DNA of 37,107 nucleotides, from contig JACRKZ010000120.1 of NCBI GenBank assembly GCA_016235455.1, positions 1 to 37,107 on the forward strand, written 5' to 3'. Made by a program: the position numbers and the translations under genes. The stretch comes from Armatimonadota bacterium (GTDB lineage Bacteria > Armatimonadota > UBA10988). Below, piece by piece: positions 7,119-36,908 of the stretch; within the stretch, counting starts at the first letter, position 1; every line of letters starts with the position of its first letter. The notes under the pieces were generated by a model. It did no database searches, had not been told where the DNA came from, and worked only from the letters and a program-made list of their open reading frames with translations.

Positions 7119-10100
7119 TCAGGCCACCAACTCGCAGTCGGCCAGCACAGCGTCGATCGACTCCGGCGGGATCGGGCGCAGTTCGGCGGTCCGCAGCGGC
7201 TCCACCCAGCGCTCGTCGCACGGGCGCCGGGGCACGCCCTGGTGGCTCCGTTGCTGGTCGCTGGCGGTGATGTAGCGGGCCGCGCGGTCGGGCTGTCCCT
7301 CCACGGCGGCGGCGCGCGCCAGGTCGTCCAAGCAGGCCAGCACGCCGCGCCGGTCGTCGTAGCGGGTGAACCAGTGCAGCGCGTCGACCAGCTCGGGTCG
7401 GGCTTCCTCGGCGCGGCCGAGCGCCAGCAGCGCCTCGCCGAGGCCCTTGCGCGCGGCCGTCTCGAGTTGCTCATCGCCGCGCTCGCGGGCTGCGGCGAGG
7501 AGGCTGCGGAAGGCGACTTCAGCGCGGTCGGCGTGACCGGTGGCGATGGCCAGGTCGGCCAGGTTGAGCCGTGCCACGAGCACCGCGCGCGTGTCGCCGA
7601 GCTCGTCGAAGCGCTCCAGCGCCTCGGCGTAGCGGGTCTGGGCCAGTTCCACCTCGCCCATGGCCGCGGCGATGTCGCCCAGGTTGAGCAGTGCCATGGC
7701 CTCGCCGCGTCGGTTGCCGATGGCCGTCTGCGCCTCGTAGCCCTCGCGATAGAGACGGCGCGCCGTCTCCCACTCGCCCTGCTCAAAGGCGATGATGCCC
7801 AGGTTGTTGAGCGTCAGGGCGATGCCCCGCTGGTCGCCCAACTCGCGCTGGGTGGCCAGCGCCTCGGCGTAGCGCGCGCGCGCCGCGACCAGGTCGCCGG
7901 TGGCCAGCAGCAGCGCGCCCAGGTCGCTCAGCGAGCTGGCCACGCCGCCGGTATCGCCGGTCTCGCGCCGCAGCGCCAGGCTGGCCTCGAAATGCTCTCG
8001 GGCCTCGTCCAGCCGGCCGGTGTTGAAAGCGACCACGCCCAGGTTGGCCAGCGAGCCGGCCATGCCGCGCCGGTCGCCCAGCTCGGTGCGCAGGTCGAGG
8101 CTGGCGCGCAGCCACGCCCCGGCCGCCGCGAAGTCGCACTGCGCCGAGGCCACGCTGCCCAGGTTGCCCAGCGTGGCGGCCTCGCCCCAGCGGTTGCCCG
8201 TGGCGCGCCGCGCAGCCAGGCTCTCGGTGTAGAACTCACGGGCCGCGGCATAGTCGCCCTGCCCCCAGGCCACCTTGCCCAGTTCGTTGAGCGCATTGCC
8301 CGCGCCGGCCAGGTCGTCCAGTTCGCGGCTGAGCGCCAGGCAGGCATCCAGGTGCGCGCGCGCGCCGTCGTAGTCGCCGCCGCGGTAGGCCAGATGACCG
8401 GCGCGTGCCAGCACCCGCGCCCGCAGGTCGGCCGGCGCGTCCTCCGCCCGAGCCAGCGCCGCGGTCATCGCGGCACGCCCCTCGGTCCAGTAGCCCCGTA
8501 CCATCCAGAAGCGCCAGAGCGCGCCCGCCAGCCGCAGACCCTGGCAGGGATCATGCTCGGCACACCAGTCCAGCGCCCGGCGGAAGTTCTCGCGCTCGGC
8601 CTCCAGCCGAGCCAGCACAGCCGGGTCCTCGCCGGCTTCAAGATGGGTTTGCATCGATTCTGCCAGATCGACGAAGAAAGCGGCGTGCCGGGCCTGCCAG
8701 ACCGGCTCGTCGCCGTGCGCGGCCAGGCGCTCAGCGGCGTAGGCGCGCAGTGTCTCCAGGCAGCGGTAGCGCACGGCCTCGCCGACCTGCTCGGCGACCA
8801 GCAGCGAGCTCTCGCGCAGCAGGGCCAGATCGTCGAGCGCCAGCGGGTTGTCGCAGACGGCCTCGACCGCCTCCAGGCTGCAGCCGCCGGCGAAGACCGA
8901 GACCCGCGCGTAGAACGCCTGAAGCTCGGGGTCGAGCAGTTGGTAGCTCCACTCCACCGCGGCGCGCAGAGTGCGATGCCGTTCGGCGGTGTCGCGCCGT
9001 CGACTGACCAGCAGGTCGAGCGGCTTGCCCAGGCGTTCGAGCATCTGTTGTGGCGTGAGCACCTGAGCGCGGCTGGCCGCCAGCTCGATGGCCAGCGGAA
9101 TGCCCTCGAGCCGCGCGCACAGCTCGGCCACCGCCGGTGCGTTGGTGGCAGTCAGGGCGAAGTCGGGCCGCACCGCCTGGGCGCGGTCGACGAACAGCTG
9201 CACGCTCTCGCAGCGCGACAGCAGTTCGGGCTCGGTGGTGCCATGCGGCGTGGGCAGTGGCGGCACGGCGAACTCGTGCTCGCCGGCCACAGTCAGCCGT
9301 TGGCGCGACGAGACCAGACAGCTCACGGTGGGAATGCGTTCCAGCAGCGCATGGACGGCCAACGCGCCGGTCTCCACGAGCTGCTCATAGTTGTCCAGGA
9401 TGAGCAGGCTCTGGTGGCCGGCCAGTGCCTGGCTCAGCGCCTCCAGCGGCTCGCGCTCGGGCGGTCGGGCCACGCCCAGGCTGGCCAGGATGGTGTCGTG
9501 GACCAACTCGGGGTCCCACACGTCGGCCAGCGGCACGAACCACACCGAGCCGCCGAACGGGTCGAGCAGCCGGTGTCCGGTCTCCAGGGCCAGGCGCGTC
9601 TTGCCGGTGCCGCCGGGGCCGGTCAGCGTGACCAGCCGCGCACGGTCGTCCAGCAGCAGGCCTTCGACGCGGTCCAGTTCGGCGGCGCGGCCGAAGAAGC
9701 GGGTGATCTGGTGGGGCAGGTTGCCGCTCTGCCCTGCCTCGGCGCGCAGCGGCGGGAAGCTGTGCTCGGGCAGATCGGTGGCGTCGACCTGGCTCACGCG
9801 CATGGGTCGCGCGCCCGGCGCCAGACGGTAGAGCCCGAGATCGACGAGCCACACGCCCGGTTGCAGGTCACGCCGCAGCAGCGCCGCGGCCGGCTCGGAG
9901 CAGAGGATCTGGCCGGGATGGCCGGCCAGCAGCAGGTGCTCCGCGACGCGAGCCAGCGGTCCCTGGTCCTGCTCCTCGCCCACCTCACCGGTGTGCAGCG
10001 CGATGCCCAGTGGTTCGCCGCCCGATCGCACCAGGGCCAGCGCGCAGTCAAGCGCATCGGTGGTGCGGCCAAAGACGGCGGCGCCCGGCCGGGTCAGATG

Positions 10101-10991
10101 CCCGCCGTGGCTCAGTACGCGTTCGATGGTGCCCGGCCAGTCGTTGGCCGGCTCGAAGCGCAGCATGGCCAGCGTGCCAGCCAGCGCCCCGGCCAGCGGC
10201 AACGGCGGCGGTGTCTCGCTGGTCGAACTCGTCAAGGCTGGCGCAGCCTGCACCTCGACGCCGGCCAGCAGCGCCCGTGCCGCGGCAGAGGGAACCTCGT
10301 CGACAGCGGCCAGTTCGCGTTCGAGCTGCTCGAACTGGCGTGTGGCGGCGGACACCTCGCCGGCCGCCAGGTACAGCGCCATGAGCCGCGTGTGACTGGC
10401 TTCGGCGCTGGGCTCATCGACCACCAGCCGCTGCGCGTAGGGCAGCGCGCGCGCCGTGTCACCGATGGCCATGAGACGGTCGACCAGTTCGCTGAGCGCC
10501 CACGACCGGCGGCCGGCGATGCGCAGCTGCTCGGGCAGCAGCCAGTCCTCCACGTAGCCGTCGAGGAGTTCGCCGAGGGCCAGATCGGCCGCCTGGCTGA
10601 GCAGCTCAATGCACTGGCCGGGCCGTTCGGCGGCTTGCGCCTCGGTCAGCAGCCGCTCAAACTCGACCAGATCGCAGCAGACGGTCTCGGCCCGCAGCAG
10701 AACGGTCAGGCGGTCGGCCACCAGCACGGAATCCTTGGGTGTACCGGGCGGTTCGAGCTGGCCACGTAGGCTGGATAGCGCCACACTAAGGCTATTGCGG
10801 GCGGCGGCCTCGTCGGAGTCGGGCCAGAGCAATTCGAGCAGGCGTGCGCGGGTGATCGCCCGGCCCAGGTTCAGGGCCAGCACGCCAAGAAGGGTGCCGG
10901 TCTTCTGCGTACGGAACCGTGTGATGACACGGTCTTCACCCGACACGCGCAAGCCGCCCAACAGCTCGATGCGCCAGAGCTTGCCCGCCAT
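7119..10991 (-). CDS. AfsR/SARP-type regulator: wHTH + BTAD + degenerate cyclase-like domain + STAND ATPase + TPR repeats
   Basis: N-terminal IELLGGLRV...LLELLWPD, BTAD region, Walker A GPGGTGKT, Walker B LILDNYE, LEGIPLAIELAA, and many 40-aa TPR-like repeats (NLGxxA..GD). Confidence 0.9.
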   Translation of the reverse strand: MAGKLWRIELLGGLRVSGEDRVITRFRTQKTGTLLGVLALNLGRAITRARLLELLWPDSDEAAARNSLSVALSSLRGQLEPPGTPKDSVLVADRLTVLLRAETVCCDLVEFERLLTEAQAAERPGQCIELLSQAADLALGELLDGYVEDWLLPEQLRIAGRRSWALSELVDRLMAIGDTARALPYAQRLVVDEPSAEASHTRLMALYLAAGEVSAATRQFEQLERELAAVDEVPSAAARALLAGVEVQAAPALTSSTSETPPPLPLAGALAGTLAMLRFEPANDWPGTIERVLSHGGHLTRPGAAVFGRTTDALDCALALVRSGGEPLGIALHTGEVGEEQDQGPLARVAEHLLLAGHPGQILCSEPAAALLRRDLQPGVWLVDLGLYRLAPGARPMRVSQVDATDLPEHSFPPLRAEAGQSGNLPHQITRFFGRAAELDRVEGLLLDDRARLVTLTGPGGTGKTRLALETGHRLLDPFGGSVWFVPLADVWDPELVHDTILASLGVARPPEREPLEALSQALAGHQSLLILDNYEQLVETGALAVHALLERIPTVSCLVSSRQRLTVAGEHEFAVPPLPTPHGTTEPELLSRCESVQLFVDRAQAVRPDFALTATNAPAVAELCARLEGIPLAIELAASRAQVLTPQQMLERLGKPLDLLVSRRRDTAERHRTLRAAVEWSYQLLDPELQAFYARVSVFAGGCSLEAVEAVCDNPLALDDLALLRESSLLVAEQVGEAVRYRCLETLRAYAAERLAAHGDEPVWQARHAAFFVDLAESMQTHLEAGEDPAVLARLEAERENFRRALDWCAEHDPCQGLRLAGALWRFWMVRGYWTEGRAAMTAALARAEDAPADLRARVLARAGHLAYRGGDYDGARAHLDACLALSRELDDLAGAGNALNELGKVAWGQGDYAAAREFYTESLAARRATGNRWGEAATLGNLGSVASAQCDFAAAGAWLRASLDLRTELGDRRGMAGSLANLGVVAFNTGRLDEAREHFEASLALRRETGDTGGVASSLSDLGALLLATGDLVAARARYAEALATQRELGDQRGIALTLNNLGIIAFEQGEWETARRLYREGYEAQTAIGNRRGEAMALLNLGDIAAAMGEVELAQTRYAEALERFDELGDTRAVLVARLNLADLAIATGHADRAEVAFRSLLAAARERGDEQLETAARKGLGEALLALGRAEEARPELVDALHWFTRYDDRRGVLACLDDLARAAAVEGQPDRAARYITASDQQRSHQGVPRRPCDERWVEPLRTAELRPIPPESIDAVLADCELVA

Positions 10992-14127: not shown

Positions 14128-15060
14128 ATGCCTGTTGGGTCGACTGCACCTGTGCTCGCGACCATTGGCCACACGCCGATGCTCCCGCTGCGGTTCGAAC
14201 CCGAAGGGCTGACCCTATGGGCCAAGGCGGAGTACCTGAACCCCAGCGGCAGCATCAAGGACCGGCTGGCCGCGGCGGTGGTGGCCGACGCCGAGGAACG
14301 CGGTCTGCTGCGGCCCGACAGCGTCATCCTCGAATGCACCAGCGGCAACACCGGTATCGCGCTGGCCATGGTCGGCGCGGCGCGGGGCTATGGGGTGACC
14401 ATCCTCATGTCCGAGGGCGCCAGCGCCGAACGGCGCTACCTGATGCGGCAACTCGGGGCCGAGGTCATCCTCTTTCAGTCTACCAACGGCTACCGCACGG
14501 GCATCGACCTGTCGCTGGCAATGGCTGAGCGCGACGACCGCTACTTCCTGCCGCGCCAGTTCGAGAACCCGCTCAACGCCGAAGACCACAAGCTGTCCAC
14601 CGGGCCGGAGATCCTGGCCCAGGTGCCCGGTCCCATCGCCGCGTTCGTGTCGGGCTACGGCACTGGCGGCACGCTGGCGGGCGTGGGCGCCGCCCTCAAG
14701 GCGGCCTGGCCCAGCGTGCGCATCGTCGCCATGGAGCCCAGCGAGGCGGCCATGCTGGCAGGCGAAATGCCTTGCTGCCACAGCATCGAGGGCATCGCGG
14801 GCGGGTTCGTGCCGCCTCTGCTGCGCCAGGCGCCGCTGGACGAGCACCTGGAGGTGTCCAGCGCCGACGCCCGCGCCATGGCCCAGCGCTTGAGCCGCGC
14901 CTACGGCCTGCTGGTAGGCACATCCAGCGGTGCCAACGTGTGCGCCGCGCTCCGCGTAGCGCGCGAGGTGGGCGGGGCCGGCGCCGTGGTCACCGTGCTG
15001 CCCGACCGGGCAGAGCGTTACTTCAGCACCGCGCTATTCGGCGCGGCCGGCATCGAGTAG
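14128..15060 (+). CDS. PLP-dependent cysteine synthase family protein (CysK/CysM-like)
   Basis: IGHTP, KAEYLNPSGSIKDR (PLP Lys), TSGNTG, QFENPLN, GTGGT, GTSSGAN, PDRAERYFST. Confidence 0.9.
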   Translation: MPVGSTAPVLATIGHTPMLPLRFEPEGLTLWAKAEYLNPSGSIKDRLAAAVVADAEERGLLRPDSVILECTSGNTGIALAMVGAARGYGVTILMSEGASAERRYLMRQLGAEVILFQSTNGYRTGIDLSLAMAERDDRYFLPRQFENPLNAEDHKLSTGPEILAQVPGPIAAFVSGYGTGGTLAGVGAALKAAWPSVRIVAMEPSEAAMLAGEMPCCHSIEGIAGGFVPPLLRQAPLDEHLEVSSADARAMAQRLSRAYGLLVGTSSGANVCAALRVAREVGGAGAVVTVLPDRAERYFSTALFGAAGIE

Positions 15061-17262
15061 TCGGCGTACGGCCTCGACCAGCGCCGTGGGGCTGAACGGT
15101 TTCTGCAGGAAACTGGTAGCCAGACCCGCCAGGTCCACCGCATCGGTGCTGGGCCGCACGTAGCCGGAGACGAAGACCACGGGGAAGTCGTGGCCGCGGC
15201 CAGCCAAGGTCCTGGCCAGTTCCGGCCCGCTGAGCCCCGGCATGACCACGTCGGTCACGAGCAGGTCGATGGGCAACTCGCTCTGCGCCACAAGCTCGAG
15301 CGCGGTTTCGGCGCAATCCGCGGTCAGCACCGTGTAGCCGTGGCGTCGCAAAGCTCGCCAGCAGAGCGCCCGGAGCCCCTCTTCGTCTTCCACCACCATC
15401 ACCGTCTCGGTGCCCGCAAGCGGACCCACCGGAACCACCGGAGCGTCCTCGTCGCCGCTCGCGCCGTCGATGCGGGGCAGCAGCACCCGGAAGGTGGTGC
15501 CTCGACCTGGCGCACTGTCGCACTCGATCACGCCGTGGTGCTGTGAGACGATGCTGAAGGCCGTGGCCAGTCCGAGGCCCGTACCCTCACCGACGCCGCG
15601 CGTGGTGAAGAACGGCTCAAAGATGCGTGTCTGCGTGGCGGCGTCCATGCCGACGCCGGTATCGCTCACCGTCACCTGCGCATAGGCGCCTGGCGAGAGC
15701 GCGGGTGTGGCTTGTGCCTGGGCGGCATCAACCACCGCCGGCCTGGTCATCACAGTCAGCTGCCCGCCCTCGGGCATCGCCGACTTGGCGTTGGCGACCA
15801 GGTTCATCAGCACCTGGTCGACTTGGCCGCGGTCGGCCCACACGTGCCCCGCGTCAGGCGCGAGGTCGACCGTCAGGCGCACATCCTCGCCAATGAGCCG
15901 GCGCACCATGGGTTCGATGTCGGTGACGACCGCGTTGAGGTCGACCACCCGCTGGTGCGTCACCTGCCGGCGGCCGAAGGCCAGCAACTGGCGCGTGAGT
16001 GACGCCGCGCGCTCGGCAGCCTTGAGGATCTCACCCATGTCCGCGCGCAGTTCGCTGTCTTCGTCGAGGCTCTCGTCAACGAACTCGGCGAAGCCCGTGA
16101 TGGCCGTGAGCAGGTTGTTGAAATCGTGCGCGACACCGCCGGCCAGACGGCCCACCGCCTCCATTTTGCCGGCCTGGAGCAGGCGCTCCTCCAGCCGCTC
16201 ACGGCGCACCTCGCCGCGATGCCGCTGGATGGCCAGCCCGTACAGCTCGGCGATCTGCACCAAGGCGTCGATATGCCGGTCGGTATACGGCTCCTCGCCG
16301 TCGGTGACGGCCACATGGCCCACCCGGTCGGCGCCCAGCCAGACCGGCGCCAGCAGCGCCTCGGCAGCACCCAGCGACAGAGGCGTCTCGGCCACCGCTG
16401 GCCGCCCTACCCAGACAGTCTCGCCGCCCAGGTCGACCGGCGGCGAAGGCACGCCATCGAGGCACAGCCGGCACTGTTCCGACGGCGATTCGCACACGCA
16501 GGCGGCGCGCATCTGCGGCGTGGCCGCGCGCAGATGACGGGTGCCATCGTCGGCCTGCTCGACCACCCCGCCGTGCCGTGACCGAGTCACCGCCAGAGCC
16601 GACTCCAGGGCCACGCGCGCCACCTCGTCCATGCTGAGGCTCGGCTCGCCGAGTGTCCGCGCGACCGCCGCCCAGGCCTGGTTGACCTGGAGCTCCCAGC
16701 GCATGGCTCGCTCGGCCACCTGGCGCTGCTCAATGGTCTGCGCCTGGGCCTCGATCAGCAGCGCTTGCCGCAGCAGCACCGTGACGATCGGCGCCACGCG
16801 CTGCTGGGCCGCCATCACGGCTCGCAGGAACGGGTCGGGTGACACATCGAGTGCGATCAGGCTGGCGAAGGGCTTGTCAGCCAGCCTCAGCGGCACGCAC
16901 ATGCAGGAGGCGTACCCGGCGTCGGCCAGCAGCGTGGGCACACGGCCTGTCGCGTCTTCGCTGGTCCACAGGGCGGCGCCGGTCAGGCCATGCCCCTGCG
17001 CCGCGACGGCGCGGAACCACGGCTCGGCGGCCACGGCGGCGCGGCGTATCGGTTCGCACCGGACCACATCATAGGCATCCGGCTCGGCGTCGGGCCGCCA
17101 GAGAACGAGCACCACCAGGCGCGCACCGGCCCACTGCCGCAGGTAGTGCGTGATGTAGTGCGTCGCCGAGGCGGGGTCATCGGCACGGCCGATGAGGCTG
17201 CCGACGATGTCGAGAGCCATCGCCACGGTCGCCGGGTCATGCTCACTGGCTGGCCGGATCAT
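15034..17262 (-). CDS. Soluble hybrid sensor histidine kinase (two GAF-like domains, HisKA, HATPase, receiver)
   Basis: H-box GGVAHDFNNLL, N-box QVLMNLVANA, DTGVGM, IFEPFFTT, GTGLGL; receiver VEDE / TDVVMP / QKPF; no transmembrane helices. Confidence 0.92.
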   Translation of the reverse strand: MIRPASEHDPATVAMALDIVGSLIGRADDPASATHYITHYLRQWAGARLVVLVLWRPDAEPDAYDVVRCEPIRRAAVAAEPWFRAVAAQGHGLTGAALWTSEDATGRVPTLLADAGYASCMCVPLRLADKPFASLIALDVSPDPFLRAVMAAQQRVAPIVTVLLRQALLIEAQAQTIEQRQVAERAMRWELQVNQAWAAVARTLGEPSLSMDEVARVALESALAVTRSRHGGVVEQADDGTRHLRAATPQMRAACVCESPSEQCRLCLDGVPSPPVDLGGETVWVGRPAVAETPLSLGAAEALLAPVWLGADRVGHVAVTDGEEPYTDRHIDALVQIAELYGLAIQRHRGEVRRERLEERLLQAGKMEAVGRLAGGVAHDFNNLLTAITGFAEFVDESLDEDSELRADMGEILKAAERAASLTRQLLAFGRRQVTHQRVVDLNAVVTDIEPMVRRLIGEDVRLTVDLAPDAGHVWADRGQVDQVLMNLVANAKSAMPEGGQLTVMTRPAVVDAAQAQATPALSPGAYAQVTVSDTGVGMDAATQTRIFEPFFTTRGVGEGTGLGLATAFSIVSQHHGVIECDSAPGRGTTFRVLLPRIDGASGDEDAPVVPVGPLAGTETVMVVEDEEGLRALCWRALRRHGYTVLTADCAETALELVAQSELPIDLLVTDVVMPGLSGPELARTLAGRGHDFPVVFVSGYVRPSTDAVDLAGLATSFLQKPFSPTALVEAVRRLLDAGRAE

Positions 17263-17855
17263 GGCCCCTCCAGCGCCGCCGACGCGGCGTCAAGCAGAAC
17301 CACGAACCGGTCGAGGGACACCTCCCTCACCTCGCAGGGCAGACCGAAATGCGCGGCGCAGTCCTGGATTTCCGCCAGAGGGGCGGCATCGGTGCCTGTG
17401 TCCAGGTAGACCAGAGCCCGGTGGCTGTCGCGGATCAACTCGGCCGTGAGGTCCACACCCAGTCCCGGGATATCGGCCAACACCTCGCGCCATCGTCGTG
17501 CCCACTCAGGAAGCAGTGCGCAGGCGTGCTCGCGGATGAGTTGCTGGTAGCCTTCGGGTCCGGCGAAGGCCTCGGCACAGTTCTCGCACGGCACCACATG
17601 CACGCGCGGGTCATGCTCGCCCGGATGCTCGCCCGCGCAGTCGCCAAACAGCACGACGACCCGCGCGCCTTCAGCCAGGGCGGACTTGACCTCGACGGCG
17701 ATGGCGGCGATGAGCCGCTCGGGGTGCATATGCAGCGCGGAATCCAGGTAGCGAACCGACCAAGCGCTGCCCGTGCGCGCGTGCCACCACTCCAGTTCGG
17801 GCTGGAAGGCCGAACAAGCGACACAGACCACGCGCGGGTCGCTGCTCAGCGGCAT
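17259..17855 (-). CDS. DUF1638-like Cys-rich protein
   Basis: The real start is ATG 17855, in a TAATG overlap with the upstream stop (the ORF track over-extends to 18332). Motifs VACSAF.PEL, YLDSALHMHPE, FGDC, CENC, LLPEWARRW, LVYLDTG. Confidence 0.75.
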   Translation of the reverse strand: MPLSSDPRVVCVACSAFQPELEWWHARTGSAWSVRYLDSALHMHPERLIAAIAVEVKSALAEGARVVVLFGDCAGEHPGEHDPRVHVVPCENCAEAFAGPEGYQQLIREHACALLPEWARRWREVLADIPGLGVDLTAELIRDSHRALVYLDTGTDAAPLAEIQDCAAHFGLPCEVREVSLDRFVVLLDAASAALEGP

Positions 17856-18868
17856 TATGACTCCTCGACCACGGCATCGTGCAACGCCGCAACCACCTCC
17901 ACGGGCGTCTGGGGTTCGATGTCGGCCGCGGTGGTGCCCAGCACGAAGCGCGGGTCGTCGCGGCGATCCAGGAGCATCGCCCGACACATGGCCAAAGCAC
18001 TCTCGCGGCTGGTGTGGATGAGCCGCGGCCCTTCGGGACCCGAGGCCAGCACGGCGGTGTCGCCGAGGATGGTGCGGGCCTCGGCCAGGTTGTCGCGCGC
18101 ATCCATGATCTGGCCGATCACCGGCTGCAGCCCGGCGGTGAGCCGCGGCTTGGCACCCGATGGAGAGCCGCCGTGGTGCAGCATGACTGGGCCTTGGACC
18201 TGCGCCAGGGCCTGCCGCAGGACGGGCAGAGTCACGGCCTCGGCGAGCTCCGGAGGCGCCAGCGTGGGGCCCATGAAGCAGGACAGCACGATGATCAGGT
18301 CGGCGCCATCTGCCAGCAACGCGTTGGCCCATCGGCCGAAGTGCTGCAGGCAGAGGTCGAGCAGCCGCTGAGCATCGGCCCGGTGGAATAGCAGTGTGTC
18401 GAGCCAGCCCTCGATGCCCATGATCATCAGCGGCAGGTCGACCGGGTCGAGCACGCCGACGGCGATGACCCGGTCGGTGCCGTGCGCCGACGCGATGGCG
18501 CGGGTCGCCTCGCGGAAGTAGAGCAACGACGGCGAGGAATCGATGTCCGGGGGCGCCAATCCCGCGATGGCCTGCCGCGAGGGCGCCGCCGGCTCGATGA
18601 ACATGGGCGCGCCCTTGTGGCTGTAGCGCAGCGTGCTGCCCCAGGCCTCACCTTCCTTGGTGACGGCAAACGGGCCCAGCACCAGGTCAGGATCGAACCG
18701 CTCGACCACCGCGGCCTGACCTTCACCGTAGGCCGTACCGCTGTGGAAGTACTCTGGCAGTGGACAACCAGTCAGATGGGCGCCGTAGAGACTGGCGATG
18801 AGGAAGAACGGCACGCGGTCCTTGGGCGCTCCGGCCAGTGTGGCGAACACACGCTCCCGGCCGGTCAT
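17855..18868 (-). CDS. Uroporphyrinogen decarboxylase / MtaA-CmuA methyltransferase-fold protein
   Basis: MTGRERVFATL...DRVP N-terminus, EGEAWG, GIEGWLDTLL, ALLADGAD; 337 aa; adjacent to a corrinoid protein gene. Confidence 0.82.
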   Translation of the reverse strand: MTGRERVFATLAGAPKDRVPFFLIASLYGAHLTGCPLPEYFHSGTAYGEGQAAVVERFDPDLVLGPFAVTKEGEAWGSTLRYSHKGAPMFIEPAAPSRQAIAGLAPPDIDSSPSLLYFREATRAIASAHGTDRVIAVGVLDPVDLPLMIMGIEGWLDTLLFHRADAQRLLDLCLQHFGRWANALLADGADLIIVLSCFMGPTLAPPELAEAVTLPVLRQALAQVQGPVMLHHGGSPSGAKPRLTAGLQPVIGQIMDARDNLAEARTILGDTAVLASGPEGPRLIHTSRESALAMCRAMLLDRRDDPRFVLGTTAADIEPQTPVEVVAALHDAVVEES

Positions 18869-19536
18869 GAGGTCACCGCAACGGCCTCGGCGGCCTGCCG
18901 CAAGCGCGCGAACAGGTCCGGCGCGCCGACCGCATGGTCGACCGTGCCGTCACCGCCGACGAGTTCCACCAGTTCGGGCCGCAGTCTGAAAACCGCGCCG
19001 CCAACCGCCAACTGGATGCGGCCGGTCAGGCCGCGGTCATCAAGCGCCGCGCGCACCGCGCGGATGTTGTCCGCCGTTCGGAAGAGCATGGCCGACACAC
19101 CGATGACGGGCGCTCCCACGCGGACCGCCGCGTCGACGAAGTCGAGCGGAGGCACATCGATGCCCAGATCGTGGACTGTCCACCCGGCCGATCGCAGGAA
19201 TACGCCCACCAGCCGCCGGCCCAGCGCATGGCAATCATCCTCGATGTTACCGATGACGGCCACGCCCGCGCCCTGTCCGCTGCCCGGTTGGGCGGCGAAG
19301 GCCTCGCCGAACTTGTCGAGCGCGTCTTCCACCACCTTGGAGGCCACGTACACCTGCGCCAGCGGGTAGGTACCATCCGCTGAGCGGCTCTCATCGAGCC
19401 GCCGCAGCAGCGGGCCAAACAGATCGGCGACGACCCGCCCGAAGCCGTGCTGCGCAGCATACTCAGCCACCAAGGCGCCAGCGCCGTCGCGGTCGCCGGC
19501 AGTGACCAGATCTGTAAGGTGCGCCAGTACTTGCAT
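18865..19536 (-). CDS. Corrinoid (cobalamin-binding) protein with cap and Rossmann B12 domains
   Basis: DxHxxG motif DCHALG (19219-19236), DLGIDV, IGVSAM, VGGA; cap motif LAQVYVASK. ATG 19536 preferred because a promoter lies at 19561-19589. Confidence 0.9.
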   Translation of the reverse strand: MQVLAHLTDLVTAGDRDGAGALVAEYAAQHGFGRVVADLFGPLLRRLDESRSADGTYPLAQVYVASKVVEDALDKFGEAFAAQPGSGQGAGVAVIGNIEDDCHALGRRLVGVFLRSAGWTVHDLGIDVPPLDFVDAAVRVGAPVIGVSAMLFRTADNIRAVRAALDDRGLTGRIQLAVGGAVFRLRPELVELVGGDGTVDHAVGAPDLFARLRQAAEAVAVTS

Positions 19537-19560
19537 CGCGGTACCCAATACGACACCCGT

Positions 19561-19589
19561 AGTCTGCCCGCACCCCACAGCGGAGTCAA
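19561..19589 (-). promoter_or_regulatory. Putative sigma70 promoter of the corrinoid/kinase operon
   Basis: Minus strand TTGACT, 17 bp spacer, CAGACT, ending 24 bp upstream of ATG 19536. Confidence 0.5.
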
Positions 19590-19652
19590 ACCGCATCTAC
19601 CCGACGACCGTCACCTGCGGTTCACATTGACCAGAGTCCGACGCTACCGGCC

Positions 19653-19695
19653 AAAACGCGCCACGGGCGCGAGCCGTTGCCAACTCGCGCCCGTG
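19653..19695 (-). terminator. Probable intrinsic terminator of the DUF1080 gene
   Basis: Perfect 12-bp stem CACGGGCGCGAG / CTCGCGCCCGTG (19662-19673 / 19684-19695), 10-nt loop, followed on the minus strand by GCGCGTTTT; 20 bp after the stop. Confidence 0.65.
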
Positions 19696-19715
19696 CGGTG
19701 GTCTGGTGCCGGAAG

Positions 19716-20750
19716 CTAGGGCAGCTTCTCGATCCAGATGTTGCGGAACTGCACGGGGTTGCCGTGGTCCTGCAGCTTGATCGGGCCGGGCGTGCCTTCC
19801 TTGTCATCGATGGCGCCGCCGGTGACCTTGGGCAGCTCGATGTTGTTGTGGATGGTCACACCGTTGTGCACCACGGTCAGCCGCGCATTGGCGGTCTTCT
19901 GGCCGTTGGCGCCCAGCTTGGCGGCCGTGAAGGTGATGTCGTAGGCCTGCCAGGCCAGCGGCGGGAAGCACATGTTGGCGTCCGGTCGAGCGATCTGGTA
20001 GATGCCGCCGCACTCATTGTCAGCGCCGTCGAGACCGTAGCTGTCGAGCACCTGGACCTCATAGCGGCCCTGCTGATAGACGCCGCTGTTGGCGCGGCCC
20101 TGGCCGGAAGCGAACGGCATGTAGGGCAGCCGGAACTCGATGTGCAGTCGGTAGTTGGTGAAGCTCTCCTCGGTCTGGCTGTCGCCACCATTGACCTCGA
20201 CCGCACCACCGTCCACCAGCTTCCACGGCGCCGCGACGGTCGGCTTGCCCACCGGGCACCAGGCGTCGAGGTTCTTGCCGTCGAACAGCGTGGTCGCGCC
20301 GGCCGGCGCTTCCATCTCCAGCGTCGGCGACTTGCGCGTGCTCTGCTTGATGCTGAACGTGCCCTTGCGGCTGCCGGCCACAGTGCCGACCACGGCGCCG
20401 TCCTTGAGACCACCCTTCCACAGCGAGGCGTTGACCACCACCCCGTCGTCGGTGGCGCGCAGCACGGTACCGGGCTCGAACGGCACGGCGTCGAGGAGCG
20501 TGAACTGCTCGCCGCCAATGTTACCGGCCAGCCGGTAGAGCATCGGCACGCGCTTGTTGAACTCGCCGAACAGGCGAGCCTCATAGCGGCCGTTGCCCTG
20601 GGCGATCATGTACACGGCCACGGGCTGGTCAGGCTTGCCCTCGATCTTCAGGCTACCGGCCCAGTCGCCCATGAAGGCATCCTGCGCCGCCGCCGGCCAG
20701 CACGCCGCCAGCGTGGCCGCTGCTACCAAAACTCTGCTGATTCTCACCAC
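19716..20750 (-). CDS. Secreted DUF1080 (3-keto-disaccharide hydrolase-like) domain protein
   Basis: Signal peptide; LFDGKNLDAW, LHIEF, GRANSGVY, YEVQVLDS, WQAYDITF, LQDHGNPVQFRNIWI; extra N-terminal beta domain; SD AGGAGA. Confidence 0.88.
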   Translation of the reverse strand: MVRISRVLVAAATLAACWPAAAQDAFMGDWAGSLKIEGKPDQPVAVYMIAQGNGRYEARLFGEFNKRVPMLYRLAGNIGGEQFTLLDAVPFEPGTVLRATDDGVVVNASLWKGGLKDGAVVGTVAGSRKGTFSIKQSTRKSPTLEMEAPAGATTLFDGKNLDAWCPVGKPTVAAPWKLVDGGAVEVNGGDSQTEESFTNYRLHIEFRLPYMPFASGQGRANSGVYQQGRYEVQVLDSYGLDGADNECGGIYQIARPDANMCFPPLAWQAYDITFTAAKLGANGQKTANARLTVVHNGVTIHNNIELPKVTGGAIDDKEGTPGPIKLQDHGNPVQFRNIWIEKLP

Positions 20751-20895: not shown

Positions 20896-23136
20896 ATGCC
20901 GGTTGACGTTCCACCTGGTCCCAGTGACTCGTTACGCGTGGCCGACCTGCGCCGCCGCGTGCGCGCGGCCATGGACGCGCCAATCGCGCGTTGGGCCTGT
21001 CCCGAACGGATCGACTCGATGTATCTCGGCGAGCCGCTGGCGGTACGCAAGGCTCGCGCGGTGGCCTGCAAGCTCGCCGCCATGCCCACCGACCTGTGGG
21101 CCGGTCAGCTCCTGGCTGGCTCGATGACGCTGGAGTCGCCCCGTCTGCACGCCGAGTGGGGCTTCCCCGACTACGTCACCGATGCTGAGCGCGACGCGGC
21201 CCGCGCGCGGGGCATGAGCATCCACTCGGTGTTCGGCCACATCGTGCCCGACTACCCGACTCTTCTGGCCCGCGGCCTGTCGGGCCTGCGCGCCGCGGCC
21301 GAGGCGCAGCGGCCCGGCTGCCAGTCGGCCGACGAGACGGCCTTCCTCGACTCGGTCTGTGTCGCGCTCGACGCCGTGGCCGACTTCGCCGCGCGGCTGG
21401 CGCAACGCTGTGACGACGAGGCCGCCGCGGCGCCCGAGCCGCGCGCCGCGGAACTGGCGCAGATGGCCGCCAACCTGCGCACCGCACCGGCCGGGCCAGC
21501 GCAGACCTTCTGGCAGGCGCTGCAGGCCGTGTGGCTACTGCACATGGTCTTCCACAGCACCATGGACGGCAATGCGCTGGGCCGCGCCGACCAGTATCTG
21601 TGGCCCTATCTGGAAGCCGACTTGGCCGCTGGCCGCCTCGACTGGGACCGTGCGGACGAGTTGGTACGCTGCTTCACGCTCAAGTTCAACGAGCGCGCCA
21701 AGACCACCGACGACCAGCGGCCCGAGAACCGCGAGCCAGAGCCCGAGGTCAAGCTCGGCGGCACGCGCCACCACACCTCGTCGCAGGTGGGCACCCGGCG
21801 CGACGGGCTCGACGCCACCAACCACTGGCTGCAGAACATCGTGCTCAGCGGTCTGACGCCCGACGGCGCCGACGGCACCAATCCGCTGACCTACCTGCTG
21901 CTGGCCGCCTACGACGCGAACCAGATGACCAACCCGCTGCTCACCGTACGGCTGCACACGGGCAGCCCTGAGGCGCTGGTACGCGAGACGGCACGGGTGC
22001 TGCGCGGCGGCGGCGGCATGCCGGCGCTGTTCAACGACGAAGCTCTGGTGCCGGCACTGGAGCGGCTGGGCATTCCCACGCCCGACGCGCGCGACTACAC
22101 CAACGACGGCTGCTGGGAGGTCATCATCCCGGGCCGTACCGACTTCGGCTTCCTGCGGCTGAGCCTCATGCTGCCGCTTGAGCGCGTTCTGGCCAGTGGG
22201 GCGGCCTACGCCACCTTCGACGACCTGTTCGAAGCCTGGCGCGCCGAACTCGACGAGGTCATCGGCGCCACCGTCGAGCGCGTCGTGGCCGGCATCGACA
22301 ACCGCTCGCTGATCGCGCCGGTACCGCTGCTGTCAGCGCTCATCGACGGCAGCATCGCCAGCCGGCGCGACCTGACCGCGGGCGGCGCCAAGTACCGCAC
22401 TTTCGCGTTGCTGGCCGAAAGCGCCGCACATTGCATCGACTCGCTGGTGGCCCTGCGCCGCGTCGTCTTTGGCCAGCGGATCTGCTCGCTGGCCGAACTG
22501 CGCGAGGCGCTGGCCGCCGACTTCGTCGGCCATGAATGGCTGCGACGGCATCTGCAGGCCGCGCCCAAGTATGGCAATGACAACGACTCCGCCGACGCCA
22601 TGGGCCAGCAGGTCATGCAAGCCTTCATCGACTCCGCCGCGCGGCACGGCGAGGCCCATCGCCAACGGCTGCTGTTCCCCTGTGGCGTGGCCACCTTCTC
22701 CTGGTACGTGGGCATCGGCGAAGGGCTTGCGGCCTCGCCCGACGGGCGCCGCGCCAAGGCGCCGGTGTCCAGTAACTTCTCCCCAGCGCTTGGCGCCGAC
22801 CACGACGGCTTGCCTTCGGCCATCCTGTCGTACGCCAAGATGCACCACAGCCATCTGCCGGCCGGCGGCCCGCTGGACCTGCGGCTGGCGGCGCGTCTGG
22901 TCGCCGGCGAGGACGGCATCGACCGCATGGTCGGGCTGATGCGCGGGTTCGTCGACACCGGCGGCTCGATGCTGACTTTGACCGTGGTAGATACCGAGGA
23001 ACTGCGCGCGGCCCAGCTCGAGCCCGAGCAGCACCGCTCGCTACGCGTGCGCATGGGGGGCTGGAGCGCCTATTTCACGATGCTCTCTCGCGAGCAGCAG
23101 GACCACCATATCCATCGCCAGGAGAGCCGGCCATGA
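20896..23136 (+). CDS. Glycyl radical enzyme (PFL-family fold), substrate unknown
   Basis: GHIVPDY, TFWQALQ, LGRADQYLWP, Cys loop NDGCWE, PKYGND, ASPDGR, Gly-radical loop VRMGGWSAYF. Confidence 0.92.
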   Translation: MPVDVPPGPSDSLRVADLRRRVRAAMDAPIARWACPERIDSMYLGEPLAVRKARAVACKLAAMPTDLWAGQLLAGSMTLESPRLHAEWGFPDYVTDAERDAARARGMSIHSVFGHIVPDYPTLLARGLSGLRAAAEAQRPGCQSADETAFLDSVCVALDAVADFAARLAQRCDDEAAAAPEPRAAELAQMAANLRTAPAGPAQTFWQALQAVWLLHMVFHSTMDGNALGRADQYLWPYLEADLAAGRLDWDRADELVRCFTLKFNERAKTTDDQRPENREPEPEVKLGGTRHHTSSQVGTRRDGLDATNHWLQNIVLSGLTPDGADGTNPLTYLLLAAYDANQMTNPLLTVRLHTGSPEALVRETARVLRGGGGMPALFNDEALVPALERLGIPTPDARDYTNDGCWEVIIPGRTDFGFLRLSLMLPLERVLASGAAYATFDDLFEAWRAELDEVIGATVERVVAGIDNRSLIAPVPLLSALIDGSIASRRDLTAGGAKYRTFALLAESAAHCIDSLVALRRVVFGQRICSLAELREALAADFVGHEWLRRHLQAAPKYGNDNDSADAMGQQVMQAFIDSAARHGEAHRQRLLFPCGVATFSWYVGIGEGLAASPDGRRAKAPVSSNFSPALGADHDGLPSAILSYAKMHHSHLPAGGPLDLRLAARLVAGEDGIDRMVGLMRGFVDTGGSMLTLTVVDTEELRAAQLEPEQHRSLRVRMGGWSAYFTMLSREQQDHHIHRQESRP

Positions 23137-24032
23137 GCGTCGAGGGGCTGGTCTTCGACCTGGACACCTTCGCCGTCCACGACGGGCCGGGGCTGCGGCT
23201 GGCCGTCTACCTCAAAGGCTGCCCGCTGTCCTGCGCCTGGTGCCACAGCCCGGAGTCGCGCCGGCCGCAGACGGAACTGGTCTTCCTGGCCGACCGCTGC
23301 GTGCTCTGCGGGCTGTGCGCCACGGTCTGCCCGAGCGAGGGCCATGGCTTCGACGACCGCGGCCACACCATCGCGTTCGAGCGCTGCGAGCTGTGCGGCG
23401 CCTGCCTGGACACCTGTCCGGAAGGCGCCCTGACCACGCGCGGCTACACCACCACCGCCGACGAGGTCGTCGCCCGTGCCGTGCGTCTGCGACCGTTCCT
23501 GGAGCACTCCGGCGGCGGCGTGACGCTGACCGGCGGCGAGGTGACGCTGCAGACCGAGTTTGCCCACGCGGTGCTCAGCGGCTGCCGCGCGGCGGGGCTG
23601 CACACCGCCATCGAGACCAGCGGCGCCTGCGCCTGGGACCGGCTGAAGCTGCTGGCCGACGCGTGCGATCTGATTCTCTACGACCTCAAGCTCATGGACG
23701 ACGGCGAACACCAGCAGTGGTGCGGCGCCTCCAACCACCAGATCCTGGACAACCTGGAGCGGCTGGCCAGCGGCGGCTACCCGGTTGAGGTGCGCGTGCC
23801 GCTCATCCCCGCCATCACCGACACCGATGCCAACCTCATGGCGCTGTTCGGCTACATGGTGCAGGTTGGTCTGTCGCGCGTGACGCTGCTGCCGTGTAAC
23901 CCCAGCGCCGGCGCCAAGTGGCAGTGGCTCGGGCGAGACTGCCAGCTTGACCTCACACCACAGACGCCCGAGCGCCTGGCCGAACTGGTCGAACTCGGCG
24001 AGCTGCTGGAACTGGCGGTACGGCACCTGTAG
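23133..24032 (+). CDS. Glycyl-radical enzyme activating protein (radical SAM with ferredoxin insert)
   Basis: HDGPGLR, KGCPLSCAWCHSPE (CxxxCxxC), two CxxCxxCxxxCP motifs, GGVTLTGGE; ATGA overlap with the GRE. Confidence 0.93.
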   Translation: MSVEGLVFDLDTFAVHDGPGLRLAVYLKGCPLSCAWCHSPESRRPQTELVFLADRCVLCGLCATVCPSEGHGFDDRGHTIAFERCELCGACLDTCPEGALTTRGYTTTADEVVARAVRLRPFLEHSGGGVTLTGGEVTLQTEFAHAVLSGCRAAGLHTAIETSGACAWDRLKLLADACDLILYDLKLMDDGEHQQWCGASNHQILDNLERLASGGYPVEVRVPLIPAITDTDANLMALFGYMVQVGLSRVTLLPCNPSAGAKWQWLGRDCQLDLTPQTPERLAELVELGELLELAVRHL

Positions 24033-32898: not shown

Positions 32899-33003
32899 GC
32901 GGTGGAGATCATCATGAAGGATGTGTCCACCGTGCGGCATGAGCCGCGGCGGGTGTGGGAATGGGCGCGGATGGCCAAGGATGTGGCGGAGGGGTTGGGC
33001 TAG
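32899..33003 (+). repeat. 105-bp direct repeat, copy 2 (orphan duplicate of the gene 3' end)
   Basis: Encodes AVEIIMKDVSTVRHEPRRVWEWARMAKDVAEGLG*; its TAG overlaps the stop of the convergent NACHT gene in CTAG (33000-33003). Confidence 0.95.
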
Positions 33004-36000: not shown

Positions 36001-36908
36001 CTGCCCCCCGTCAGCCTACCAGTGCCGAGCATTTGCAGCACACCAGGGCCGTCCTGCCAGTTCCATGGCACAGCGCTGGACTGGTGCTGGTGCCCATGTA
36101 GCACCAACTGCGCCCTCGCTTGGCCGACGACTTGCAGCAAGTAGTCTGCGTTGTCTATGCCCACCAAGTCAGCGACGAGCTTCGCGCGCTGCTCTTCGCT
36201 CAGCTGGCGCTGACACAAGTCGGCGGTCATCTGGCCCCTCAGGGGCTCTGGTACCGACGCCGGATTGTGGTGGAGCGCCACCAAGCGCACCGTCTCCTCG
36301 TTCCGACCCACCCAGTTGTCGAGCAGCGCCTGCATCTGCTGCTCGGAGACCGAACCGACGTGGTCGCCGTCCATGTGCGTCTCGCGTTCGCAGGAGTTCA
36401 CCAGCGCAACGCTCAGGCCCAAGTCGTCGAAGGCCACTACCTTGCCGCCCGACGGCAGTTCCGACTGGACAGCCCACTGTTCGCGACCGAGGAAGGAGGC
36501 GAGAAACACATCATATTCGCCGAACTTGCGCGCAGAAAGGTCTGCGCGCACCTTGTCCTCAGTGGATCTGTCGTAGGTAACATCCACCCAGGCGCGTGCG
36601 CATTCGTACCAGGACACATCGTGATTCCCAGGAACAAATACAAACTTTCCTCGCGACAACTTCCACCTACCAGCCAACTCCTCGTAGAACTCCTTGGCCT
36701 GCATGTATTCGGAACGATTGCTGGTCATGGCGACATCGCCGGTGGTGACCACGATGTCCGGCAACTGGACACCAAGCTCGCGGCACGCCCCGGCAGCGGC
36801 GTCGGCAACCAGCTTGCCAAGGACCCCCGGCGCATGCCCGGTCTGTGTATCCATGCCCCCGAAATGCAGATCCGAGAGATGCAGTATCGTGATGTCCGGC
36901 CGTGCCAT
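33000..36908 (-). CDS. Metallophosphoesterase-NACHT (STAND/NLR-like) protein, candidate antiphage defence
   Basis: All five calcineurin-like motifs (LHLSDLHFG, TGD, VPGNHD, LHHNP, LHGHQH), then MYVPLRL, Walker A GPAGSGKTT, Walker B LLADGWDE, VVVTSR, FAHIGFQEYLTA; long C-terminal region. Confidence 0.88.
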   Translation of the reverse strand: MARPDITILHLSDLHFGGMDTQTGHAPGVLGKLVADAAAGACRELGVQLPDIVVTTGDVAMTSNRSEYMQAKEFYEELAGRWKLSRGKFVFVPGNHDVSWYECARAWVDVTYDRSTEDKVRADLSARKFGEYDVFLASFLGREQWAVQSELPSGGKVVAFDDLGLSVALVNSCERETHMDGDHVGSVSEQQMQALLDNWVGRNEETVRLVALHHNPASVPEPLRGQMTADLCQRQLSEEQRAKLVADLVGIDNADYLLQVVGQARAQLVLHGHQHQSSAVPWNWQDGPGVLQMLGTGRLTGGRDELALKAEHTFHVIHLDRATSRCRRLPLCYNPLLSTTVDVRRGGYQRGETEALLATAPSARSESRVAIAVPSAPTSPEPASGRPVTTADTSGEWLAQYRRRLGGYGEFVRLPLGSESAGDAASGQVEARLDRMYVPLRLSDGGGGAKGDGGSVLLPGGVLDLERHLLIVGPAGSGKTTWARYTFRQLLRDERCLPMLLELRSVAARWDRTAEDPIRDLSSWLRDWVSAYAGPGLSELVETALRAETGPVPVLLADGWDELGELSAEVLEALHVLMKRCPRLRVVVTSRTAVSQLCFDPHVFDVREVMPLNNEEVDSLTKRSAAALYADDEDGRCAFIARFEAVQTASAAVTGLSRRPLTLTLALTYARYHSLPDTRVALYETCVASLLNALPAEYGSEGVRTPSGRYWRPDDAEERLRATAMLAYGLQTDGYRGASRRHVMSSPDVVTRHLSLLGWSAGQCQRFVCWLVERAGILADSPDGALHFAHIGFQEYLTAVHLNAAHDGAAARGSAFRHLAENMDWWETLRLWAGIMNRTSVGRVSSLGSELPEQRALFGAILADGAGTHQDLACWVDEWVRELNDGWPAGAEYCAAAWSASVQTRRRSLVGNTLSHRAHRMTWLAWQRVAQWCREALGLGLEPPPTWSFVVRAGRDLDGAGPSEESLAVGRTLAFFAPMWPNGNAGLLQAWPSSRRTAGLAAQVVASLGAPRNVTECVARYSQRIGVERLLPFDTREPGDILGWRPGPGRPYQFDRVRRLSECLRREPFMRRLIWPSRDLTVLEDYAALIALEITSDYETAGIADDVTRWALTRAGAIRGQADGTLRSRWSSEILGGLGEWRGTYDALAILARGPIAMSVHAFCAGLPAEHCSSGEADLVASACAKRFGQTTLERVGLGRADDCIAVALRVAHPMWHALANHIAGISTADDRAYLVGCAKNPPTDLPDEVQWGLKYTVRGDVWMGDGSVVTLDDLLGEELPYLEEMEPPIPIEEIWPEDEGA

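Follow-up and report, generated by a model that had tools for sequence, protein, structure and literature searches.

We report on a four-gene operon in a 37,107-nucleotide stretch of DNA (the window) from an Armatimonadota bacterium of the lineage UBA10988 (GCA_016235455.1, contig JACRKZ010000120.1, positions 1-37,107). Head to tail on the minus strand, from 19536 (or 19596) to 15034, the operon encodes a corrinoid protein, a URO-D-fold protein resembling MtaA, a protein of the DUF1638 family and a histidine kinase. Comparison of sequences leads us to propose, with a probability of roughly 0.6, that these four genes specify one cytoplasmic sensor, which relays to the kinase the state of a cobamide held by the corrinoid protein. 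The cassette to which the operon belongs is apparently a widespread and undescribed corrinoid-based input module for two-component and cyclic di-GMP (c-di-GMP) signalling. That the methyltransferase-like module acts as a cytoplasmic sensor had been suggested from the window alone (hereafter, the original prediction), and the comparative evidence supports this suggestion.

The first line of evidence is the way in which DUF1638 is fused to other proteins. Among the top 150 representatives of its subfamily, 100 are stand-alone proteins of 185-215 residues, 22 are long proteins with DUF1638 at the N terminus and 13 join URO-D to DUF1638 (10 at full length, 3 as fragments), with 15 representatives falling outside this classification. 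Fifteen of the 22 long proteins have HisKA/HisKA_2/HATPase, GGDEF or HD-GYP outputs and the other seven have PAS, GAF or nothing only. In BLASTP comparisons, residues 5-185 of the window kinase matched the segment that follows DUF1638 in 17 of the 22 fused proteins (E ≤ 1.1e-5, best 5e-22), with a weak match or none in P0046, P0050, P0060, P0169 and P0188. This kinase segment, which we term X (16708..17250, minus strand), is a GAF domain specific to the cassette, and its homology to the segment of the fused proteins indicates that the window DUF1638 protein and kinase represent a split form of a DUF1638-GAF input. The ATGA junction between these two genes corresponds to the exact cut between halves that form one protein elsewhere. 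An AlphaFold2 (AF2) model of X (kinase residues 1-195; pLDDT 92.5) is a GAF domain ending in a 49-residue helix, and Foldseek matched it to the solved GAF domains 3k2n and 5w10, those of PDE5/PDE2 and bilin GAFs (probability 1.00, TMq 0.53-0.61). The full-length window kinase is collinear with a cassette kinase from Vulcanimicrobiota (L092; E 1e-92). A reverse search with X through the sample of 401 genomes of the phylum, in which 8 candidates per genome were scored, gave strong matches (E ≤ 1e-15) in three. Two of these cover the whole domain, and each belongs to a cassette (that of the window and that of genome G302); one is partial (G254). The X domain of the window kinase is the only strong match to the X profile in its own genome.

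A survey of gene neighbourhoods extends this picture across phyla. The genome collection was scanned with the DUF1638 motif [FY]xDSMLHMxP, thus covering motif-bearing members of the subfamily; 124 matches were obtained, 121 were confirmed and the best 80 were kept, and these loci were scanned with local profiles built from our own sequences. X lies directly downstream of DUF1638 in every locus, and the corrinoid and URO-D genes lie directly upstream of it in 74. Five of the remaining six loci are short of upstream contig and the sixth (L109) has a URO-D gene and no detected corrinoid gene. We argue from the retention of both genes in 74 of the 75 loci with enough upstream contig, together with the 13 URO-D-DUF1638 fusions, that the corrinoid and URO-D-like proteins belong to the sensing step. 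A single frame holds DUF1638 and X in 10 loci and URO-D and DUF1638 in 4; the other 66 are split like the window, which is the commonest form of the cassette. The output domains vary: by Pfam, 67 of the 80 X-bearing frames are histidine kinases (50 HisKA-type and 17 HisKA_2-type), two carry HD-GYP, one carries GGDEF-EAL and ten carry no output, so that a signalling output is present in 70 loci. Seven of the ten frames without an output reach the end of the DNA and three (L076, L079 and L096) end at a stop codon. A quick tree of DUF1638 requires no fewer than 6 changes of output label, against a lowest possible number of 3 and a mean of 18.6 for shuffled labels. Pfam scans of the 74 corrinoid-containing cassettes never found the corrinoid protein as the fused partner. 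When 779 neighbouring open reading frames (ORFs) were clustered, the sole further recurrent gene was a lone receiver, present at 18 loci and often directly after HisKA_2 kinases; no substrate-specific methyltransferase (MT1), pterin enzyme or activase recurs beside the 80 cassettes, and no B12 transport or synthesis gene accompanies them. A survey of this type had been put forward with the original prediction, and it revealed what was anticipated there, namely, a conserved trio beside interchangeable outputs that share an N-terminal GAF-like domain. The contrary outcome, in which such trios sit mostly with metabolic methyltransferases, was not observed, as no metabolic partner recurs.

The loci belong to 14 named phyla: Thermodesulfobacteriota (30 loci), Spirochaetota (14), Bacteroidota (6), Verrucomicrobiota (4), Planctomycetota (4), Myxococcota (3), Vulcanimicrobiota (3), Pseudomonadota (2), Acidobacteriota (2) and five phyla with one locus each; 7 loci have no phylum name. 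The cassette also occurs in cultured organisms (Malonomonas rubra DSM 5091, Geomonas sp. Red32 and Geomesophilobacter sediminis), and the sensor proposal is therefore open to direct testing. In one locus from a Verrucomicrobiota metagenome-assembled genome (L077, 4136-6526), the PAS domains of the cassette GAF protein flank a sensory domain of the PocR type, which is otherwise tied to regulators of B12-dependent diol metabolism and to the kinase MecA of the mec cassette.

The genes of the window operon are tightly packed. The TGA stop codon of the corrinoid gene (18865-18867) overlaps the ATG of the URO-D-like gene (18866-18868) to give ATGA at 18865-18868, the TAA of the latter (17855-17857) overlaps the ATG of the DUF1638 gene (17853-17855) to give TAATG at 17853-17857, and the TGA of the DUF1638 gene (17259-17261) overlaps the ATG of the kinase gene (17260-17262) to give ATGA at 17259-17262. 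All four genes are translationally coupled, and a minus-strand read of the three junctions agrees with the chain of overlaps described previously. Upstream lies a gene of the DUF1080/3-keto-disaccharide hydrolase type (19716-20750), which ends in a hairpin (at about 19659..19697, minus strand) followed by a UUUU run (~19653-19656). The 76-nucleotide stretch from 19640 to 19715 on this strand folds at -46.5 kcal/mol (z = -4.66), and none of 200 shuffled sequences was as stable, a result that bears out the earlier description of a strong insulating hairpin; it reads as the terminator of the DUF1080-type gene, insulating the operon. The operon had also been said to begin at 19589, where there is no in-frame start; the in-frame ATG codons are at 19596 and 19536.

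The kinase (15034..17262, minus strand; 742 residues) is a soluble hybrid protein composed of X (residues 5-185), GAF_2 (209-346), HisKA with the H-box VAHDFNN (371-433), HATPase_c (477-597) and a receiver (621-733). PF00512, PF02518 and PF00072 scored above their cut-offs, and the first GAF domain scored weakly (24.3 bits against 22.4). The earlier view of this kinase as membrane free survives a crude test, as there is no hydrophobic stretch and the maximal Kyte-Doolittle mean over 19 residues is 1.41.

The DUF1638 protein (17259..17855, minus strand; 198 residues) matches profile positions 2-158 of the 161 in PF07796 (E 5.5e-21; 75.6 bits against a gathering score of 27). A word-based search for its homologues returned 3 relatives and an exhaustive profile search returned 2164 at E ≤ 1e-3, with 158 representatives at E ≤ 1e-30. 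The AF2 model (pLDDT 95.1) is a two-lobed alpha/beta protein for which Foldseek found nothing clear in the PDB (best TMq 0.43, to 3lft; one match with E ≤ 0.001, at a TM of 0.22). Among 48,161 chains compared by VIA-align, the highest Z scores were 8.4 (1yco_B, over 99 aligned residues at an rmsd of 3.1) and 8.2, values that are common for models without relatives. We set aside a likeness to LacI/periplasmic-binding or Asp/Glu-racemase types as a generic two-lobed alpha/beta impression that implies no function. Four residues, C14, H42, C73 and C93, are at least 90% conserved among 101 members of the subfamily, and a sister clade has Cys at the H42 position. From this pattern of conservation the four residues look like a four-ligand (Cys3His or Cys4) metal site; the AF2 model puts them at the C-terminal ends of strands 1 to 4, a placement that is only suggestive. 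The three Cys positions are common to the window protein and to non-signalling DUF1638 paralogues in the same genome.

There is some evidence for a role of DUF1638 proteins in B12-dependent metabolism. In the passages of PMC5764234 that concern it, PGA1_c13340, a DUF1638 protein of Phaeobacter inhibens, is needed for a split B12-dependent methionine synthase, the mutant is rescued by methionine, and DUF1638 is described as co-occurring with a RamA-like activase. SPO2162 of Ruegeria pomeroyi is predicted, in the corresponding passage of PMC12478193, to act in the recharging of cob(II) to cob(I). Both proteins belong to the same PF07796 family as the window protein and likewise lie beside a B12-binding protein; however, they serve a metabolic enzyme and lack a signalling partner, whereas the subfamily described here goes with both a URO-D protein and a GAF output protein and is often fused to one of the two. 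The Phaeobacter genetics thus link DUF1638 to the working of a corrinoid protein in another system, and a corrinoid protein is the constant companion of DUF1638 in the cassette and in metabolic systems alike.

The first gene of the operon (18865..19536, minus strand) encodes a corrinoid protein of 223 residues from the ATG at 19536; the alternative ATG at 19596 would give 243 residues, and the shorter form fits the lengths of homologues (214-225 residues). It has a cap helix bundle (B12-binding_2, PF02607, E 4.3e-5) and a Rossmann B12 domain (B12-binding, PF02310, E 4.2e-18) with a DxHxxG motif (DDCHALG), of which D101, H103 and G106 are invariant among 80 family members. The protein presumably binds cobamide. 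Cap, Rossmann domain and motif are those of the methyltransferase-cognate corrinoid proteins (TIGR02370; MtaC/MtbC/MtgC). Its best solved relatives are 1y80 and 4jgi, and its best NCBIfam matches fall below the curated cut-offs: MtbC with 72.8 of 350 bits, pyl_corrinoid with 68.6 of 215.3 and MtgC with 66.9 of 370.

The second gene (17855..18868, minus strand) encodes the URO-D-fold, MtaA-like protein, in which PF01208 spans residues 3-334 of 337 (E 7.1e-35). MtaA (4AY7) is its only solved relative by sequence. Scores against metabolic families are again below the curated cut-offs, at 57.5 of 400 bits for MtaA_Meth, 44.7 of 235.4 for mtaA_cmuA and 52.3 of 244 for PRK06252, so that the protein falls outside the MtaA/CmuA methylcobamide:coenzyme M methyltransferases (TIGR01463, NF040654) by score. 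The zinc site of MtaA, His-x-Cys followed by a more distant Cys, activates the thiol substrate. In the alignment to 4AY7, the 'LHICG' of MtaA is aligned with 'LHHGG' in the window protein, and none of 92 members of the cassette URO-D family has Cys in this column (G in 41, T in 32, A in 10, S in 5, V in 3 and N in 1); nor does any other column of the alignment reach 50% Cys. The MtaA-type zinc-thiolate site is therefore missing, and the protein, lacking it, would not be expected to methylate a free thiol such as coenzyme M.

Our proposal for the mechanism is as follows. The corrinoid protein would carry a cobamide bound base-off/His-on, and the URO-D-like protein would dock on it, as MtaA does on MtaC. 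DUF1638 would sit physically between the URO-D-like protein and the N-terminal X domain of the kinase, a position suggested by the URO-D-DUF1638 and DUF1638-X fusions. The state of the cobamide would be set by the URO-D-like protein, some methyl donor or acceptor and the redox condition of the cell; this state may be that of the cobalt (Co(I), Co(II) or methyl-Co(III)) or no more than the engagement of the corrinoid protein with the URO-D-like protein and DUF1638. DUF1638 and X would read this state, and the long helix of X would transmit a change to the second GAF domain and to the HisKA/HATPase core, altering autophosphorylation and phosphotransfer to the kinase's own receiver. We infer the cobalt state as the variable that is read, the order of the contacts and the direction of regulation. 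A first guess at the physiological signal is redox or methyl-donor status in anoxic cells. Modelling of complexes, also put forward with the original prediction, was positive, weakly so, for the corrinoid-DUF1638 pair, which scored 0.43 (individual runs 0.43, 0.46 and 0.35) against 0.00 for the best of three controls; the runs agree in at least 94% of contacts and the partners have a pLDDT of at least 82. Of 157 solved complexes, 116 reach the mark used, as do 2 of 215 mismatched pairs; these counts are rough here because our own alignments were used.

A more specific version of the sensor proposal, which we regard as a long shot, is that DUF1638 supplies in trans the metal-thiolate site lost by the URO-D-like protein. 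With the corrinoid protein docked on the URO-D barrel, its methyl-Co(III) would methylate a Cys of the Cys3His/Cys4 site; in an alternative form, this site would be an Fe-S centre exchanging electrons with cobalt. DUF1638 would thereby acquire a mark, covalent or redox, that switches the GAF domain attached to it and hence the kinase, GGDEF or HD-GYP output. If true, the cassette would be a protein S-methylation device (an Ada-like 'methyl switch') or a cobalt-redox relay, and in at least 14 phyla it would act on signalling of the two-component and c-di-GMP kinds.

A sample of the phylum provides a further view of the cassette. Some match to DUF1638 is present in 98 of the 401 genomes, and we obtained the context of 16 loci in genomes other than that of the window. 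Eight cassette loci were found in 6 genomes, including two in the window's own genome, and all have signalling outputs. The four genes are separate in the window and in one locus of G302 (L038); in the other five loci with corrinoid and URO-D genes (contig C74 of the window's own genome, G302/L039, G094, G264 and G270) these genes are followed by a fused DUF1638-output protein of the PAS-kinase-REC, PAS-GGDEF-EAL or HisKA-HATPase type, and in G195 a DUF1638-GGDEF protein lies where the contig ends. The C74 cassette (L005; 3753-8066, plus strand) is a second, divergent copy in genome G000, that of the window, and belongs to the sister clade with Cys at the H42 position. It comprises a corrinoid protein of 241 residues, a URO-D-like protein of 376 residues and a fused DUF1638-(GAF-like)-PAS-HATPase-REC protein of 853 residues, which is also present as the 851-residue P0046. 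Two more URO-D-like genes lie just upstream of this cassette (84-977 and 980-1936).

The same genome has two other DUF1638 paralogues, on contigs C158 and C97, which were considered as further copies of the cassette and rejected, as neither has corrinoid or URO-D neighbours. On C158 (L007; 8471-13123, minus strand), a metabolic-type DUF1638 gene (248 residues) is directly downstream of a REC-PAS-HisKA gene and is followed by a xylose-isomerase-like TIM barrel gene, an Rrf2 regulator and a radical SAM/DUF3463 gene. On C97 (L006; 10133-11701, plus strand), DUF1638 is fused to the N-terminal region of a hydantoinase/ASKHA-type ATPase. Fusions of this type, of about 940 residues, made up 34 of 35 matches in a search for longer DUF1638 proteins, including examples from Brocadiia and Armatimonadota, and may represent a DUF1638-linked, ATP-driven activase. 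In another genome (G336, contig C43, 6592-9128; L053), a 486-residue protein joins a DUF1638-like N terminus (profile positions 49-194) to MEDS and anti-sigma zf-HC2 domains and is divergent to a URO-D-like gene; this fusion is a possible further signalling use of DUF1638. The window's own genome has one RACo_C_ter match (contig C62, 42291-43061, minus strand; E 4.2e-74), and the matched region contains a single in-frame TAG; many of the RACo matches from related genomes likewise have one internal stop codon.

Several observations weigh against the sensor proposal. Lower-scoring DUF1638 loci of the phylum are found beside RACo, CbiA-like NTPases and SAM methyltransferases (G227, G278 and G114) or with MTTB and a corrinoid protein (G186), settings that are metabolic or maintenance contexts; the others are accompanied by OsmC and a SAM methyltransferase (G105), OsmC only (G168) or aldo-keto reductases (G351 and G210), or have no Pfam-annotated ORF at the site (G193). 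The presence of X at 80 of 80 loci describes this DUF1638 subfamily and not DUF1638 at large, since selection went through a single motif and retained 80 of the 121 confirmed matches. The occurrence of RACo in all 6 cassette genomes of the phylum sample favours the proposal, weakly so because these genomes are kin and the background is 57% (230 of 401 genomes). The URO-D-like protein may be catalytically dead or may act on another substrate. The modelled contact between the corrinoid protein and DUF1638 receives weak support, as passes at or below 0.60 comprise 18 of the 157 solved complexes together with both passing mismatches. The promoter that the operon had been credited with was not seen in a scan for sigma-70-like consensus sites, which found none in 14900-19900 (shuffle mean 0.2), other promoter types being outside the scan. 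There is no Hpt protein or response regulator near the hybrid kinase of the window. Finally, at a cap-domain position occupied by Trp in at least 90% of 80 family members, the window corrinoid protein carries Arg, and this copy could be atypical; the window DUF1638 protein also sits on a very long branch of the family tree (1.9 substitutions per site), and the window cassette is an outlier of its family.

Three other explanations need to be weighed. The first, which we consider unlikely, places the sensor in the metal site of DUF1638 itself, an Fe-S or zinc site responding to redox or oxygen, or in a detection of cobamide supply (apo versus holo protein), with the corrinoid and URO-D-like proteins as accessories or clients. 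The Cys3His/Cys4 site is conserved throughout the family, non-signalling DUF1638 proteins included, and it is DUF1638, not the corrinoid or URO-D-like protein, that is fused to outputs. In addition, DUF1638 lies beside RACo in this phylum and tracks RamA/RACo-type reductive activases in other bacteria, according to the passages on this family in PMC5764234. However, mere accessories would not be expected to be kept as faithfully as the corrinoid and URO-D genes are in the 75 informative loci, nor would URO-D be fused to DUF1638, as it is in 13 representatives. Also against this explanation are the lack of any Rfam match in the window, cobalamin riboswitches included, and the lack of B12 transport or synthesis genes with the cassette.

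Photoreception appears still less probable. The corrinoid protein would carry a photolabile alkyl-cobamide whose Co-C bond is broken by light, and DUF1638-X would report the event; the dark state would be regenerated through re-methylation by the URO-D-like protein and re-reduction by DUF1638, with RACo. Such a regeneration role would explain why methyltransferase-like and DUF1638 proteins accompany the chromophore protein. CarH and AerR are known to use protein-bound cobalamin for signalling, and the cap domain of CarH has a Trp-x9-Glu-His motif over the adenosyl group. This pair of elements is not visible in the cap-domain consensus of the 80 corrinoid family members, an alignment that includes no CarH sequence. 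The TransRegCarH model gives the corrinoid protein 29.6 bits against a cut-off of 400 and matches the B12 part alone, and Pfam and NCBIfam searches found no DNA-binding domain in the protein (223-243 residues). In favour of photoreception, the corrinoid protein has weak relatives (E 7e-5 to 1e-3) in the cobalamin-binding entries 8j2w, 8j2x and 8j2y, which were deposited with a GGDEF protein. Against it, no photolyase, carotenoid or other light-linked gene recurs in the survey neighbourhoods, and the named carriers (Geobacteraceae, Syntrophaceae, Desulfobacteraceae, Treponemataceae and Bacteroidales) are largely what we take to be anaerobes of sediment, groundwater or gut. Also in favour, B12-binding domains serve as photoreceptors in CarH-type regulators and have been predicted to be light-sensing partners of kinases and GGDEF proteins, in the relevant part of PMC8717448. 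CarH/LitR, AerR/PpaA and the photoglobin-B12 'light-sensing bundle' predicted in the same part of PMC8717448 and linked to two-component proteins resemble the cassette in using B12 for signalling and not for catalysis. They differ from it in that the cassette has no MerR or other DNA-binding domain and no photoglobin, and its B12 protein forms a chain of its own, accompanied by DUF1638 and a protein resembling a methyltransferase.

The remaining explanation, an ordinary metabolic operon for corrinoid methyl transfer whose partners lie elsewhere and which is co-transcribed with a kinase that regulates it, is the least credible: the corrinoid and URO-D-like proteins are indeed most similar to MtbC/MtaC-type and MtaA-type proteins, other DUF1638 proteins occur in metabolic contexts, and a RACo-like activase and other B12-binding proteins are encoded elsewhere in the genome, but scores far below the metabolic cut-offs, the absence of the MtaA zinc Cys from all 92 members of the cassette URO-D family, the lack of a recurrent MT1, pterin methyltransferase or activase, the covalent fusion of DUF1638 to kinase, GGDEF and HD-GYP proteins and to URO-D, and a first kinase domain that is the cassette-specific GAF all speak against it. 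The original prediction had held that the metabolic partners were absent. Within the window this stands, as no MT1 (MTTB/MtaB), pterin-binding methyltransferase or RACo/RamA activase is present among the 29 of 77 ORFs of at least 150 residues that were scanned; elsewhere in the genome there is the RACo-like gene on C62.

Comparison with the known metabolic systems sharpens this distinction. MtaC/MtaA (and MtbC/MtbA) of methylotrophic methanogens, for which MtaA has been solved (4AY7/4AY8), show the same pairing of a corrinoid protein with cap, Rossmann domain and DxHxxG motif and an adjacent URO-D-fold partner. The window proteins nevertheless score far below the cut-offs for these families, the cassette URO-D family has no Cys at the HICG site, and the cassette lacks an MT1 or activase and always continues with DUF1638 and a GAF signalling protein. 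Set against a three-component corrinoid methyltransferase system, the operon has no MT1 or acceptor enzyme beside the pair, and the activase of the genome is outside it. The mec (anaerobic dichloromethane) cassette is another parallel: as described in the passages of bioRxiv 10.1101/2021.08.30.458270 that deal with it, it joins a corrinoid protein, an MtaA/CmuA-family protein, an MtrH-type methyltransferase, an activase (MecH), a protein of unknown function, a transporter and a histidine kinase (MecA). It shows that a kinase may lie next to metabolic corrinoid genes, a point in favour of the metabolic explanation. However, mec has the full metabolic set and its kinase senses through PocR, whereas the window cassette has no metabolic partner, present or recurrent, and the input of its kinase is a GAF domain linked to DUF1638.

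Having weighed these explanations, we favour a corrinoid-based sensor. We found no published description of the cassette in a search of full-text literature, with subscription journals and supplements outside its scope, and the DUF1638 passages of PMC5764234 and PMC12478193 are not about signalling. For most bacterial kinases and c-di-GMP enzymes, what is sensed is unknown. In the present case, an entire three-protein corrinoid module seems to have become an input device that serves several types of output in many, mostly anaerobic, lineages. If this proposal is correct, signal transduction would gain a new chemical principle, in which the quantity read is the state of a cobamide bound to a protein, or a mark (methyl or redox) that stems from this state. 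DUF1638 would then have a role, and the way in which anaerobes report the status of methyl donors or of redox would become easier to approach.

The remainder of the window contains a few other features. Downstream of the operon, a convergent PALP gene overlaps the end of the kinase gene. A glycyl-radical enzyme (PFL-like and Gly_radical, 746 residues) and its radical-SAM activase (299 residues) are encoded at 20896-24032 on the plus strand, 1.3 kb upstream of the operon, and point to an anaerobic or facultative lifestyle. Two large STAND-type regulators are encoded on the minus strand, one of 1290 residues with a BTAD/Trans_reg_C-NB-ARC-TPR architecture (7119-10991) and one of 1302 residues with a metallophosphoesterase-NACHT architecture (33000-36908).

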